DNA of 31,759 bases from positions 1 to 31,759 of the IMG/VR virus record IMGVR_UViG_3300030047_000088; one strand, given 5' to 3'. Shown in pieces: positions 1,342-28,835 of the stretch. Below the pieces are notes generated by a model. It saw only the letters and a list, made by a program, of their open reading frames with translations. It was not told the origin of the DNA and did not search any database. The stretch is from a virus (taxonomy: Duplodnaviria > Caudoviricetes). How positions within the stretch are numbered: the stretch's first letter is position 1; each line of letters starts with the position of its first letter. Both the position numbers and the translations under genes were made by a program.

Positions 1342-1714
1342 AACCGGGATAACCCATAGCTTCGTATTTCTTCCAATTAATACCAAGCTCTTTAGCTAGT
1401 AATTTTTCAACCTTTTCTGCAAAATGGTGTTCTTTCTTATAGGGTGCTTTTGGATGGTCTCCGGGTTCTCCGGGTAAACCTTCTTCGTTAAACCATATGT
1501 CAAATTTTGAAATTTCCTTTTCGTTAATTCCTCTTTTTTGAGTTAAAAACCATTCTGTAAATTCGTGCATTAATACCAAGAATTCATATTCTGGTGTCCA
1601 GTTAGATACTCTAAATTGCCATATTCCTTTTTCTGGATAATAGTCTCCGCACGTTTCATATCGTTGCTTTTTTGCGGGTATAGTTTTAAATTGTATATTT
1701 GGTAAATGCTTCAT
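1334..1714 (-). CDS. Hypothetical protein with HExxE zincin-like motif
   Basis: 126 aa; LMHEFTEW plus distal EHHFAE; overlaps the next start. Confidence 0.6.
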   Translation of the reverse strand: MKHLPNIQFKTIPAKKQRYETCGDYYPEKGIWQFRVSNWTPEYEFLVLMHEFTEWFLTQKRGINEKEISKFDIWFNEEGLPGEPGDHPKAPYKKEHHFAEKVEKLLAKELGINWKKYEAMGYPGYE

Positions 1715-2489: not shown

Positions 2490-2523
2490 ATTGTTTATAT
2501 TATAGCACGTTTATAAAATTCGT

Positions 2524-3180
2524 CTAGTTTCCTAATTTGCTTATTGTTAATGTTACGTGGTCTATTATTAGATTTGTTGCACCTGTATGGTTTGCTACAC
2601 ATAAACTAATAAGGTCTCCTACACTTAGAAAAATTATTCCAGAACCGGAAATAGATGTAGGCTTCCCAGAGTTTATTATTTCAGAGTGGTTAGCCATAAA
2701 ACTTTGTCCAGTTCCATTCAACATAACTGAACCCTCACATTCTTGGTTATTACTTGCAGAATGAACAGACATAGACCAAACAACCCTATAAGTTCCTTCA
2801 ACTCCGCATAATAATTCTCTCGCATTTTGGAAAGTAAAACCTACACATAAACCACCAGATAAACCAGTCCCTATTTGATAGAAAGTATTTGATGCAGATA
2901 CAGTTATTGTTATGGTTGCATTGTAAGCATACATATCTCCATAAACACCCATGAAAAGATTTGTTTGTTCGTTTATTAGGTCGATTGTGTCTTGACTTAG
3001 TGGAAATAATAGTTGACCCTCATTTGTTTGAAGTTCGTCAACATTATTATTTATATCATCAATACTACCATTGATATCTTCTAAATTATTATCTAGATTA
3101 TCAGAAAAGTCCTGTAATGAAGAATCATTATCATCAAGTCTTGAATTTATATCATCTATTTGTTGTTGAATATCGTCCAT
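2524..3180 (-). CDS. Putative fibre/spike protein: acidic coiled coil plus C1q/BclA-like beta domain
   Basis: D/N-rich heptads at the N-terminus; C-terminal GTYRVVWSMS...SGSGIIFLSVGDLISL resembles C1q/TNF-like domains. Confidence 0.5.
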   Translation of the reverse strand: MDDIQQQIDDINSRLDDNDSSLQDFSDNLDNNLEDINGSIDDINNNVDELQTNEGQLLFPLSQDTIDLINEQTNLFMGVYGDMYAYNATITITVSASNTFYQIGTGLSGGLCVGFTFQNARELLCGVEGTYRVVWSMSVHSASNNQECEGSVMLNGTGQSFMANHSEIINSGKPTSISGSGIIFLSVGDLISLCVANHTGATNLIIDHVTLTISKLGN

Positions 3181-14044: not shown

Positions 14045-14084
14045 ATTATAGCACACTTTAAAAATTGAGCCGGTCTGTGGATAA
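14045..14084 (-). promoter_or_regulatory. Motif promoter plus DnaA box at the head of the packaging operon
   Basis: TTATCCACA (14076-14084), then AATTTT-N6-GTGCTATAAT. Confidence 0.75.
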
Positions 14085-16394: not shown

Positions 16395-17228
16395 TTAGAA
16401 GAATCCGTAAGCAACTTGCAAGCAGGTCAATCCTAAACTACGCCACATTGACACAACTCTATTTCTATCGTCAAATACTGCTAGTATATTATACCTATTT
16501 TTTAAGTGATTGTCAAATATTTCTTTCTTGATGATTGAGTCTTCTCTAGTGTCTCCGGCTTTACGCATAAACAAGTCATCAAAGGGTATATTGTTATTTA
16601 TTAGCCATTCTGTTGTCTCTTTAAAGCAATCATCAGTTCTGCCGGACACGATTATTATAGGTAGCCCGGATGCTTTTAGTATTCTAGCTATCATGGTTAT
16701 ATTATGGTTTGGCAAGTCAGTATTTACTTTTGAATAGTCGAATATATCTCTACCATTATTTAAAGCAAGTGTGCCATCAATGTCAAAGATGTAGCAATTT
16801 TGTTTGTCATCAGAATATTCTGGAGATTTTGGTTTTAGGCATTTATCATACATCCTTTGAATAACTTTTCCACCAACAGATTTTTCTCCACGCTTGGCAT
16901 CACGTTCAATACATTCCAAAAGTGGAACATCGAAGAATTTTATTTCAAAGTCTGAACCTTCTAAGTCTGCCAATTCTTTCCAATATTCTTCATAACCAAA
17001 ATTTGTGTCATCAATAACAACATCACTTTCTATATGAAGAAAATGTGCTACAATATATCTTTCAACATTCTTTATTATTTCTTCATTTTTATGACTCCAT
17101 TGTCCACCATCAACCATAGCACGTAGGTCATCTTTGTTGACACGCTTCCAACCCTTCTTGACAAGTTCAAAAGCGTGTGTTGATTTACCGGATGCTGGAA
17201 GTCCTTTTAGTATTAAGAGTTTAGCCAT
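16395..17228 (-). CDS. pseT: Polynucleotide 5'-kinase/3'-phosphatase (T4 PseT-like)
   Basis: GLPASGKS P-loop, DDLR, IDDTN; HAD FDIDGTLA, SGR, FDDR. Confidence 0.95.
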   Translation of the reverse strand: MAKLLILKGLPASGKSTHAFELVKKGWKRVNKDDLRAMVDGGQWSHKNEEIIKNVERYIVAHFLHIESDVVIDDTNFGYEEYWKELADLEGSDFEIKFFDVPLLECIERDAKRGEKSVGGKVIQRMYDKCLKPKSPEYSDDKQNCYIFDIDGTLALNNGRDIFDYSKVNTDLPNHNITMIARILKASGLPIIIVSGRTDDCFKETTEWLINNNIPFDDLFMRKAGDTREDSIIKKEIFDNHLKNRYNILAVFDDRNRVVSMWRSLGLTCLQVAYGFF

Positions 17229-17949
17229 TTTGTTTTATTTCATAGCTAGAATCATATCTAGTATTTTCTCCTTTCGGATAATCTAACATTAAATTATAAC
17301 CACAACTATTTATCATTTTGTTTTTATCTTCTTCCGTTCCTAAAAACATTAAATATCTATGTTTAGTTCCAAATTTTTCTACGGTCATTCCAAACGATTC
17401 ACAATTTTGTGGCAATGTTTTTGTTTTATCGTAAGAACCAAATTTTTCTGTTACCCATTGTTCAGTTATAGTTTTTCCGTGATAATTTCTACCTTCAAAT
17501 ATATATTTCATATTTTTACCACCAATAGTGGACTTGCCTGTATATATCCAATTCGTTGCTTGATAAATATAACCTTGATGTCCATTACTAGGGTCTGCAA
17601 AACTAACTAAACATAGGGGTCTGTCCGGTATTAACTTTATACACCAAGAAACAAAGAACGAAAGAACGTTTTTACCAAGATTATCATTAACACATAATCT
17701 ATTAAGCTCTAAGGTTTTAACTCTATAACTACCAAAAATACATTTACCATTATTCATTTGAACACACGGCATACCAAAAGTGCAGATACCTTGTAATTTA
17801 TGTTCTTTATCAAATAATCCAAAAGCATATACTACTGGAGCTTTTCTACGAGCATAGTGTTTAAAAAGCATCCATTCAGCAGTTTCTTTGGTATCTATCT
17901 TTTCGATTCTCCAATCTTTTTTATTAAATTGTATTTCTTCTTTTTCCAT
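17221..17949 (-). CDS. mom: Mom-family GNAT DNA (adenine) modification enzyme
   Basis: KHYARR, FGLF, GICTFG.P, ELNRL, VSFADPSNGHQGYIYQATNWIYTG, KHRY, YPKG. Start ATG 17949; the upstream ORF extension is a tRNA. Confidence 0.85.
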   Translation of the reverse strand: MEKEEIQFNKKDWRIEKIDTKETAEWMLFKHYARRKAPVVYAFGLFDKEHKLQGICTFGMPCVQMNNGKCIFGSYRVKTLELNRLCVNDNLGKNVLSFFVSWCIKLIPDRPLCLVSFADPSNGHQGYIYQATNWIYTGKSTIGGKNMKYIFEGRNYHGKTITEQWVTEKFGSYDKTKTLPQNCESFGMTVEKFGTKHRYLMFLGTEEDKNKMINSCGYNLMLDYPKGENTRYDSSYEIKQNG

Positions 17950-17951
17950 TG

Positions 17952-18023
17952 TGCGGTATACTAGGAATTGAACCTGTGTCTCCCCACTGGAAGCGGGGCG
18001 TTCTACTACTAAACTAATACCGC
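17952..18023 (-). tRNA. tRNA-Gly(TCC), atypical
   Basis: GCGGTAT/ATACCGC acceptor; GTTT/GAAC D-stem; CCCCG-CTTCCAG-TGGGG; T-stem ACAGG/CCT(A)GT with a bulge. Confidence 0.85.
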
Positions 18024-18039
18024 ATTTGCTTACATAATT

Positions 18040-18085
18040 AGTATAGCACATTACTAAAATCTAAGCAACTAAAAACTGTGGATAA
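18040..18085 (-). promoter_or_regulatory. Motif promoter plus DnaA box for tRNA-Gly/mom/pseT
   Basis: TTATCCACA (18077-18085); GATTTT-N6-GTGCTATACT. Confidence 0.75.
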
Positions 18086-21886: not shown

Positions 21887-21986
21887 AGTCTTCATCTTCA
21901 TTAAAATCATCATCGACCAAATCTTCTTGTTCGTCTATTGAATCTTGACGACACAATGGACAATCTTCTGGACAATTCCAAGGCAT
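21879..21986 (-). CDS. Tiny acidic Cys-containing protein (35 aa)
   Basis: Manual: MPWNCPEDCPLCRQDSIDEQEDLVDDDFNEDEDYD. Confidence 0.55.
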   Translation of the reverse strand: MPWNCPEDCPLCRQDSIDEQEDLVDDDFNEDEDYD

Positions 21987-22006
21987 TTTAATTCAGAGCT
22001 TTTTAG

Positions 22007-22080
22007 TTGAAACACAGATGGGGATAATCCCCTTATGGTATGCAGAGGTCGAATTGCGATTACCCTCATCCATGTTTCAA
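22007..22080 (-). ncRNA. Structured 5' leader (three-way junction)
   Basis: 14-bp stem TTGAAACATGGATG/CATCTGTGTTTCAA (G-U pairs fit the minus strand) enclosing two hairpins. Confidence 0.6.
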
Positions 22081-22094
22081 TTTACTCTAAATAG

Positions 22095-22141
22095 AGTATA
22101 GCAAATTTTTATTCTATTGTAAAGTGCTTACCTGTGGATAA
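22095..22141 (-). promoter_or_regulatory. Sigma70-like promoter plus DnaA box
   Basis: TTATCCACA (22133-22141); TTTACA-17-TATACT. Confidence 0.75.
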
Positions 22142-22142
22142 C

Positions 22143-22346
22143 TTATCCAAACACAGAATCTTCATCGTTGTCAACTTTATATGGATGTAGGTATTTATCA
22201 AACTGTTCATGTAAACTAAAAAGTATATCTACTAGTTCATGCTTCCTATTAGAAACTGCTTTAGGTTCTCCGGTAATAACAATTTCTTTATTAACGAAGT
22301 CTAGTAATGCACTTCTAATTTTTACTTCTTGTTTTTCTGTTGACAT
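22143..22346 (-). CDS. Hypothetical protein
   Basis: 67 aa directly after the structured RNA. Confidence 0.6.
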   Translation of the reverse strand: MSTEKQEVKIRSALLDFVNKEIVITGEPKAVSNRKHELVDILFSLHEQFDKYLHPYKVDNDEDSVFG

Positions 22347-22678
22347 AATATTCTAAGTTATGGGTCGGGATTATGTTTTCCCGAAAGTTGGTTTAGGATT
22401 GGCAAGTTTATTTTTGTAGCTACTTGAACATCCTGTGTTCATTCACTAGAGCTTTCCACCCTAAGAGGAATCTTACTCAAAATCACAAGCGTATCAGAAC
22501 CAAAGTGCACGATGGCTCTTAATACCCGTTTGTGTGATTGTCTGATTTGCACAGACACGTTGCTGAAGTGCATTTAATAGTATTTCCCAACTACTTCCAC
22601 TTTAAGCCCACTTAAAGAAGAATAGTTTATCTCCCTTCACAGAGATTATTCACTCACCCATAACTTAACATATTATGT
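22343..22678 (-). ncRNA. Large unassigned structured RNA/leader
   Basis: Perfect 12-bp closing stem TAAGTTATGGGT/ACCCATAACTTA plus 8-bp extension; many internal hairpins; no ORF of 60 aa or more. Confidence 0.7.
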
Positions 22679-22756
22679 TTTAATGAACTAAATTCTAGAC
22701 ACGCATATCGACCACTACATATCTAGAATTAAATTCACTAAATCTCTAACATATTT

Positions 22757-22801
22757 AGTATAGCACATAATAAAAATTGATTACCCACTACCTGTGGATA
22801 A
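22757..22801 (-). promoter_or_regulatory. Motif promoter plus DnaA box upstream of the structured RNA
   Basis: TTATCCACA (22793-22801); AATTTT-N6-GTGCTATACT. Confidence 0.75.
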
Positions 22802-22829
22802 CTTTTAAGCCTTATATTATAATGGTTAT

Positions 22830-23456
22830 TTACCAACTTAGAAGTAATAGAGCATCCTTCTTCATTTCGCAATTTTCTGGAAGTTTTATTTTTGTGTAAT
22901 CGAATGGCTTAGTTATTAAGTGCCATCCATTTTTTGTTGGATAGTGTTTTACAATTAATTCATTAGGAATAGCTTGTAGTGCTTCTCCATCAATATCCCT
23001 TCCTTCAATATTATCAATATCAAATAAAAATAAAGATGTTGCTCTTTGCGGTGGTTGCATTAAACATCCTACGAATCTATTTTTTAAATCTAAATAAAAA
23101 TTTTCCTTTTGAACTTGGTCGTAATAATCTGCTTCAAGTTGTTCAAACTTAAATTGACGAATTGCCTTATTAAAATTTCTTTCATTTACTGCGGAGTAAA
23201 TTCTCATAGGAAGTTCAGAAGACATTTGTTCATCGAATAAAGATTTTAGAGCTTCAAACCACTCGTCAGAATTCCTAGTAATTATTTTTCTTAATTTAGT
23301 ATTATTTACTTCTCCACCCTCTTTGTGTCTTTGAATTAAAAACATCACCCTATATCCAGTAGAGAAATTTTTAAACTCATCAAAAATATGTTGTGCTCTT
23401 TTTAGTTTTTCTTCCTCAAAACTAATTGGAGATTTTACTTTGTCCCAAGTTTTCAT
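22830..23456 (-). CDS. Putative AEP (archaeo-eukaryotic primase) superfamily protein
   Basis: FLFDID (DxD) and TKNGWHLI (motif II-like His), PFD. Confidence 0.5.
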   Translation of the reverse strand: MKTWDKVKSPISFEEEKLKRAQHIFDEFKNFSTGYRVMFLIQRHKEGGEVNNTKLRKIITRNSDEWFEALKSLFDEQMSSELPMRIYSAVNERNFNKAIRQFKFEQLEADYYDQVQKENFYLDLKNRFVGCLMQPPQRATSLFLFDIDNIEGRDIDGEALQAIPNELIVKHYPTKNGWHLITKPFDYTKIKLPENCEMKKDALLLLSW

Positions 23457-23617
23457 TTTTTTATTTCCTTTTCTAACTCATAAATAATAAAATTCTTAAA
23501 ATCAATCGGATGTCTTCTTAGTGGTGATTCTTCTGTTATAAATCTAAGATACATTTCTTCTACAAACTTTACCCTACTTTCTAGTAACTCTTTTGCTATG
23601 GTGTTGATGATAGTCAT
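23453..23617 (-). CDS. Hypothetical protein (54 aa)
   Basis: Manual: MTIINTIAKELLESRVKF...; ATGA overlap with the next gene. Confidence 0.55.
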   Translation of the reverse strand: MTIINTIAKELLESRVKFVEEMYLRFITEESPLRRHPIDFKNFIIYELEKEIKK

Positions 23618-28415: not shown

Positions 28416-28643
28416 ATGTCAGGAGGTTCACACGATTATGCGTATTCAAAATTAAATGAAATTGCTGAAAGTTTCTATCCAACACCATCAGACCATTTAG
28501 AAGAAAGGAAAAAGGTTGCGAAAATACTTAAACTTGTAGCGGAAATTTGCCACGACATTGAATGGATAGACAGTGGCGATTATGGAAACGAAGACTGGAA
28601 AATAGTTGAAGAAAATCTCTTAAAAATTAACATAGAAGAATAA
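28416..28643 (+). CDS. Hypothetical protein
   Basis: MSGGSHDY...HDIEW.DSGDYG recurrent phage family pattern. Confidence 0.7.
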   Translation: MSGGSHDYAYSKLNEIAESFYPTPSDHLEERKKVAKILKLVAEICHDIEWIDSGDYGNEDWKIVEENLLKINIEE

Positions 28644-28649
28644 GGAGTT

Positions 28650-28835
28650 ATGAACAACAAACACTATATAGCAAAAAACACACTAGGAGGTTCATTTTGC
28701 ACAAAGTGTTTGAATTGGTCAAACATGCCCGATGGACTAAAAGATGATATTTGTGAAGCAACAAGGGCAGAAATAAAATCAAACAGAAAATTACTAAAAG
28801 CTAACAGAACCCCTTTATCAACCAATAACAAATAA
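28650..28835 (+). CDS. Hypothetical protein
   Basis: TAAGGAG Shine-Dalgarno; CxxC. Confidence 0.6.
   Translation: MNNKHYIAKNTLGGSFCTKCLNWSNMPDGLKDDICEATRAEIKSNRKLLKANRTPLSTNNK

Follow-up and report, generated by a model that had tools for sequence, protein, structure and literature searches.

A large structured phage RNA with a manA-type core and an insert of about 170 nt in P8, base-paired alike in three phages

A conserved, strongly base-paired non-coding element lies on the minus strand at positions 22343-22678 of a 31,759-nt virus record (called here the window, meaning the whole stretch of DNA that was analysed); its core is of the manA type (Rfam RF01745) and carries within helix P8 an insert of about 170 nt. 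The base-pairing is conserved in three phages, and the element is independent of any one downstream gene. For what such an RNA does, we favour the explanation, which we hold to have an even chance of being right, that this enlarged manA-type RNA is made from its own promoter, is released by RNase III at its stalk and self-assembles through loop-loop contacts into a closed oligomer, as the short manA RNAs do. The window includes terminase, capsid, exonuclease, RNA ligase, PNKP, Mom and HAD_SAK_2 genes, and only 4 of the 28 likely genes of the phage have an SD-like leader. Carriers of the long form hold 13 (the window phage), 22 and at least one tRNA genes, and ten runs labelled as peat metagenomes contain at least half of the words of 21900-23500, six of which may have supplied the DNA itself. 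The features of the region, all on the minus strand, are as follows.

22793-22801, minus strand: a 9-mer that we take to be a DnaA box; the window has seven, all placed ahead of one and the same promoter motif
22757-22767, minus strand: TG-extended −10 promoter-like motif, recognised by sequence and as repeat family D4, with a start site probably near 22750
22679-22742, minus strand: 64-nt leader hairpin between promoter and element, an imperfect 26-bp helix (z −6.5), in the window only
22656-22678, minus strand: 5' arm of the 21-22 bp end-to-end stalk, from pairing and covariation; candidate RNase III substrate
22595-22657, minus strand: manA-type 5' core, with GUG-NN-UGAAUA, a 2-bp P2, P3 with its loop L3 (22639-22635), P4 and a P5 hairpin with an invariant GUGGG loop
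22564-22592, minus strand: P8 5' strand (22592-22587), a small hairpin and the predicted pseudoknot partner of L3 (22568-22564)
22392-22563, minus strand: insert of about 170 nt within P8, four hairpins and an A-rich linker
22539-22557, minus strand: hairpin Ia of the insert
22482-22538, minus strand: long hairpin Ib, its tip bearing a self-complementary hexamer (22510-22505)
22454-22470, minus strand: hairpin Ic, its loop predicted to pair with 22397-22393
22418-22447, minus strand: hairpin Id
22366-22391, minus strand: P8 3' strand (22391-22386) and a manA-type P9 hairpin (22383-22366)
22343-22365, minus strand: 3' arm of the stalk, from pairing, holding the ATG at 22346-22344
22143-22346, minus strand: 67-aa ORF, with one relative 69% identical that shares the first 10 residues

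The stretch is free of genes and measures 336 nt with the whole stalk and 313 nt within its 12-bp closing helix. Folded as RNA it reaches −103.5 kcal/mol (z −5.73, none of 100 shuffles as good), and the tile that holds it ranks first of 94 across the window (z −6.3 against −5.0 for the runner-up, at ten shuffles per tile), bearing out the structured RNA that a sequence-only reading had called here. That reading had also described a closing helix that buries the ATG at 22346, and such a helix was found: 22667-22656 pair with 22365-22354, and together with an outer helix (22678-22671 with 22350-22343) they make a single stalk of 21-22 bp with one G.A mismatch, in which the ATG has an unpaired probability of 0.0 and opening from −4 to +8 costs 8.2 kcal/mol. 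A stalk of about 20-26 bp is present in all three long RNAs (the window and two homologues, L351 and L385), G-U pairs occur in these stalks, and as helix 1 of the three-way alignment the stalk comprises 22 pairs, six of them with two-sided change and with 92% of cells paired.

The two homologues come from other phages, L351 as one of 47 loci in a scan for the P3 motif and L385 from a motif search of 35 records. Both align with the window RNA end to end at about 62-63% identity (227 of 359 identical columns for L351, 229 of 369 for L385), and the L351 alignment scores 284.5 against a shuffled maximum of 154. Across the three, 88.0% of alignment cells are paired versus 73.7% in shuffles (0 of 500), and two-sided change is seen in 40 of 98 pairs versus 18.1 in shuffles (0 of 500), with slid controls pairing at 38-49%, for a structure that was chosen with all three sequences in view and on those three sequences only. 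The earlier helices were fixed before any homologue was to hand; of their 78 pairs, 71 remain in L351 (null 57.8, 0 of 2000) and 66 in L385 (null 60.5, 50 of 2000). Every internal helix then listed can be found in the sequence, but two of them are not conserved: GAATA/TATTC retains 3 and 2 of its 5 pairs in the homologues, and CAAGT/ACTTG retains 4 of 5 only with an offset in one and 2 of 5 in the other. Five elements were likewise fixed on L351 while the L385 sequence was not yet known, namely P4, hairpin Ic, the pairing of the Ic loop, the palindrome at the tip and the pseudoknot of L3, and these keep 21 of 21 pairs in L385 (null 17.4; 8 of 2000). Within the insert 38 of 39 helical pairs are kept in each homologue (null 30.7 and 30.9; 0 of 2000 each). 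The claim of a large structured phage non-coding RNA is in this way upheld by covariation in two homologues.

The RNA had been thought an orphan, and in this the earlier reading was mistaken. A local Rfam scan of 22300-22780 alone aligns it with the full manA model RF01745 (positions 1-192), scoring 30.9 bits with an E-value of 2.8e-6 (reckoned on 481 nt by 4227 families), albeit under the gathering cut-off of 55.2 bits; the alignment places 195 nt inside P8 where the model has 24, and deletes P6/P7. A cmscan of the whole window listed tRNAs and one match at E 0.97, manA not being among them. L351 gives a partial and mis-registered match of 14.1 bits on RF01745, and L385 no Rfam match at E≤1. 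An indirect link of the long form to manA comes from a model built on the sequences of the three long RNAs, which among 39 records finds three short manA-like RNAs (G024, G031 and G032, E 2e-4 to 3e-3), two of them scoring 23.7 and 29.4 bits on RF01745.

The likeness to manA is one of motifs and of their order. The GUG-NN-YGAAUA motif comes with a 2-bp P2, the P3 hairpin and an AAR linker (0 of 100 shuffles), and the closing helix then encloses P4, P8 and a P9 ending in AAUCC, in the same order as in manA. P2 is AG/CU in the window, GA/UC in L385 and AC/GU in most short members, and two-sided changes occur in 3 of 4 pairs of P4, 3 of 6 of P8 and 3 of 5 of P9. Like manA the RNA is phage-borne, and it has a predicted partner for L3 in its P8 domain, similar in kind to the L3-L8' contact of one cryo-EM variant. 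Unlike manA it has the P8 insert and lacks the 5' P1 hairpin, the bases of which pair in the window, L351 and L385 with the 3' arm and so form part of the stalk (cmscan forces a weak P1 in the window alignment). The P5-P7 multiloop with its L5-L7 pseudoknot (SS_cons_1) was not found in the long RNAs and is reduced to the one P5 hairpin; for the L8-L9 pseudoknot (SS_cons_2) no L8 partner of L9 was found, a candidate in hairpin Id competing with other pairings. A partner search for L5 and L9 gave ambiguous candidates only, and thus two of the three known manA cage contacts are without a clear counterpart. Length differs too, 313-336 nt here versus about 170-210 nt in the nine manA seed rows and "under 200 nt" for the solved RNAs, as does the carrier, which is a peat phage poor in SD leaders here and a marine cyanophage for manA. 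On account of its score, its length, its missing P1 and its reduced P5-P7 the RNA is counted as a variant of manA rather than as a member. Divergent cores were present in the seed alignment as early as 2010, and some rows also lack the P5-P7 arms (nine sequence rows and the structure lines of PMC2864571 supplement 5). The enlarged form itself was not found in the accessible parts of the open-access and bioRxiv literature, including PMC2864571, PMC9964418, PMC7779021, PMC12286853 and bioRxiv 10.64898/2026.07.01.735769.

Tertiary contacts are predicted for two loops. Taken alone the two pseudoknots, of L3 and of the Ic loop, are not significant (9 of 10 pairs in L351, 451 of 2000; 10 of 10 in L385, 97 of 2000), and the complementarity of L3 to the P8 domain, seen with changes in all three long RNAs (4-5 of 5 pairs), does not reach significance in these alone. 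Over 26 distinct L3 loops of the wider family the cognate partner scores 11.9 versus 10.4 for swapped partners (0 of 20000 permutations, with the P3 parses of L231 and L232 overrunning), a signal that stems from the divergent short members; the window ranks 6th of 26, and canonical manA members show no such signal (ranks 4-21 of 26). The tip of hairpin Ib is a loop of 10 nt, the central hexamer of which is self-complementary in all three RNAs (GUGCAC, CUGCAG and UUGCAA), its inner UGCA being invariant and its outer pair different in each. For OLE and GOLLD, changes that preserve a palindrome have been used to argue for intermolecular contacts (Kretsch et al., PMC12286853). Such evidence is weaker here, because the inner UGCA does not vary and the outer pair, the one that changes, could just as well close a UGCA tetraloop inside a single chain, as it does in the fold of L385; in the ROOL and GOLLD palindromes changes at adjacent bases exclude pairing within one chain, whereas the two bases that change here stand 4 nt apart and do not exclude it.

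An own promoter and DnaA box had also been claimed for the RNA. Both motifs exist, the 9-mer at 22793-22801 and the TG-extended −10 at 22767-22757 (the latter not picked up by a −35/−10 scan), but they are general to the phage and not specific to the RNA, since perfect DnaA-box 9-mers occur seven times in the window against 0.44 expected (at 14076, 18077, 22133, 22793, 24146, 26074 and 31324) and all seven have a TG-extended −10 some 15-27 nt downstream on the same strand. By this layout the promoters of the phage may be tied to host DnaA; L385 shows the same arrangement of DnaA box and TG-extended −10. A promoter-like motif stands directly upstream of the RNA in all three long forms, and the leaders of L351 and L385 are about 10-12 nt long and do not have the 64-nt hairpin. 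Behind the next DnaA-box promoter of the window there is a second structured element of about 76 nt (22006-22081, minus strand; z −4.0, 0 of 200 shuffles), for which an Rfam scan gave no real match. A tRNA-Gly call at 17951-18023 (minus strand) falls inside the Mom-like ORF 17221-18051, just behind a DnaA-box promoter, and so the true start of that ORF is probably further downstream.

In the explanation that we favour, the RNA would be transcribed from its own promoter and host RNase III would cut the transcript at the stalk, so freeing it. A helix of 21-22 bp suits RNase III. Both pseudoknots would form (L3 with 22568-22564 and the Ic loop with 22397-22393), L3 and the self-complementary tip loop may make the contacts between molecules, and the insert might add contact surfaces or a cargo domain. 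The hiding of the AUG of the 67-aa ORF would be a local side effect, relieved by cleavage of the stalk. The role would likely be that of a structural scaffold or a decoy, made in bulk by tRNA-bearing phages. An own promoter, a stalk of processing type and the lack of a fixed downstream gene favour an RNA product over a gene switch. For short manA RNAs, assembly via L5-L7', L8-L9' and L3-L8' kissing loops into pentamers, decamers and a 60-mer is described in bioRxiv 10.64898/2026.07.01.735769. It tells against such assembly of the long form that two of these three interfaces have no clear counterpart in it. ROOL and GOLLD are similar in being large ornate RNAs of tRNA-bearing phages that assemble by kissing loops, some of them palindromic (Kretsch et al. 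2025, PMC12286853); in contrast to these the present RNA matches neither of their Rfam models, and it is much shorter than GOLLD (800+ nt). A bolder idea, to which we give little credence as yet, is that the manA core is a reusable subunit of phage RNA cages with a plug-in site in P8, a pseudoknotted payload of 170 nt and a palindromic kissing loop then giving a particle made of RNA alone, in which a functional domain would be enclosed or put on display, such as a catalytic module or a decoy against the tRNA nucleases of anti-phage defence. As a riboswitch candidate manA has been an orphan since 2010; its cages were shown in vitro only recently, and it has no known biological role. Loss of two known cage contacts together with a new domain makes the long form a natural test of which contacts the manA family needs, and the three long RNA sequences are ready for synthesis and cryo-EM.

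Every predicted contact could also be made within one molecule, and it is possible, at a rather modest probability, that the RNA is a structured monomer, cut at the stalk, which binds a host or phage protein or the ribosome. The invariant unpaired GUGGG loop, the A-rich linker and L9 would suit a surface for binding a partner, and the genes of the phage include 13 for tRNAs as well as those for an RNA ligase, PNKP and a HAD_SAK_2 protein; such a monomer might be a decoy or sponge against defence nucleases or else a partner of the phage tRNA and RNA-repair genes. However no partner protein was identified and the neighbours of the RNA differ in the three phages, and short manA RNAs assemble without protein (bioRxiv 10.64898/2026.07.01.735769).

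That a ligand or a cleavage opens the stalk and frees the start codon, making the RNA a cis-regulatory leader (a riboswitch or a processing-gated switch), seems unlikely. The occurrence of manA in 5' UTRs had led to its being put forward as a candidate riboswitch (Weinberg et al. 2010, PMC2864571). The 67-aa ORF is likely a real gene, judging from its relative, even with no PHROG or Pfam match, and its AUG is fully paired, so its translation would depend locally on the stalk being opened or cut; no promoter-like motif of the phage type lies between it and the RNA, and in two of the three carriers a gene follows close behind. Yet the AUG is inside the stalk in the window alone of the three long RNAs, and the downstream contexts are unrelated: an orphan ORF in the window, a DnaB-like helicase in L385 with its AUG 13 nt past the stalk, and in L351 no adjacent gene, the next listed ORF being about 180 nt from the RNA. 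Stalk length is kept even where there is nothing to hide. The covering of the AUG in one of three and the differing genes downstream argue against the translational switch, as a conserved role, that had been suggested from the window.

Size, multi-way junctions and predicted pseudoknots are on the scale of a ribozyme, one in which the manA core would serve as a scaffold for folding while the insert, with its two pseudoknots and invariant linkers, formed the active site, and we regard this as improbable. RNase P, tmRNA, group I/II introns, ROOL, GOLLD and OLE gave no match at E≤1 in the window or at E≤10 in the local scan, where catalytic and self-cleaving Rfam families were also absent at E≤10, and ARAGORN found no tmRNA in the window; the earlier failure to match the RNA to tmRNA, RNase P or group I/II introns agrees with this. 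Exon context is lacking, the contigs compared show neither a joint nor a circular junction at the element, and catalysis by manA is not reported in the accessible portions of the literature examined. Bacterial RNase P RNA is comparable to the window RNA in length, in having paired ends and in a few short motifs, and this candidate was rejected as no family match was seen at E≤10 and the look-alike segments, which P8 and hairpin Ic account for, vary in L385. Resemblances to group I introns, group II domain V and retrons were dropped after the local Rfam scan and the homologues.

A MITE-like or other mobile insert at the DNA level, with the inverted ends as transposase sites, had been offered as an alternative and is very hard to credit: the inverted ends are long, gene contexts differ across the phages and no capsid or terminase gene common to the carriers was detected in the fragments examined (five were searched, and the single match shows little), but there is one copy in the 31.8-kb record, itself a fragment, with no flanking target-site duplication, the stalk has G-U pairs, the interior covaries as RNA under selection and the element comes with a promoter of its own.

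A weak hint of expression comes from contigs that cover only the interior of the RNA. A single long piece comes from the RNA run X20, spanning 22437-22646 at depth 2.7 with 2 differences, and X17, with its library type not recorded, covers 22432-22653 at depth 32.6; in each 20 kb of the window was compared, both runs were chosen for holding the element region, and their contigs give neither strand nor level. A piece from X14, labelled as DNA, extends past these ends to 22706. X17 also holds an exact 154-nt coding piece, 28620-28773, in a contig of 267 nt with its remainder elsewhere. The lake runs X16 and X22, which have a small share of the region, do not cover the element and were left aside.

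The wider searches are known to miss members: RF01745 run over 29 records missed the window phage's own copy, and L385 lies outside the insert search pattern. In 28 other records, reached via the exonuclease, the long form occurs in one (G009) and short forms in two (G024 and G025). The one metagenome scan gave 91 loci, among them 65 canonical manA, two copies of the window phage and two short or odd forms (L246 and L249), with no further long form. Neither the window RNA nor L351 has a blastn match in INPHARED, and an exact 16-mer scan returned 29 loci, one of them the window phage's own record and all others unrelated. GTDB scans gave no match in one case and 10 chance matches in another, and a sample of 401 genomes, taken from the phylum to which a Parcubacteria MAG belongs, yielded 18 matches, about as in the reversed control, none passing both the P2 and the P3 checks.

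Motif scans of viral contigs gave 50 canonical manA among 89 distinct matches in the 120 listed of about 390 loci, as well as varied forms of 150-230 nt with the same core. In the related phage L002 two tiles, 166-495 and 991-1320, fold strongly (z −11 and −13, eight shuffles each) and bear no likeness to the window RNA. In L351 a further non-coding stretch, its ends paired, lies some 10-130 nt downstream of the RNA and ahead of the next promoter-like motif. In L246, near the match at 2501-2559 (minus strand), an odd manA-like form has a core that seems to close early, with further hairpins after it. L162 (1494-1721, plus strand) is another odd manA-like form, with an enlarged P8/P9 region (about 225 nt). 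Divergent manA-like RNAs of 150-190 nt were seen in L154, L161, L164, L168, L171, L172, L183, L186, L201, L331 and L339; several of these adjoin tRNA or tmRNA-like genes, and most have a clear L3 partner in P8. A short manA-like subtype, with a closing stem of 13-16 bp and a common P9 loop bearing the palindrome UCUAGA, is found at L157 (1483-1667, plus strand), L176 (1369-1553, minus strand) and L231 (near 1515-1700, plus strand).
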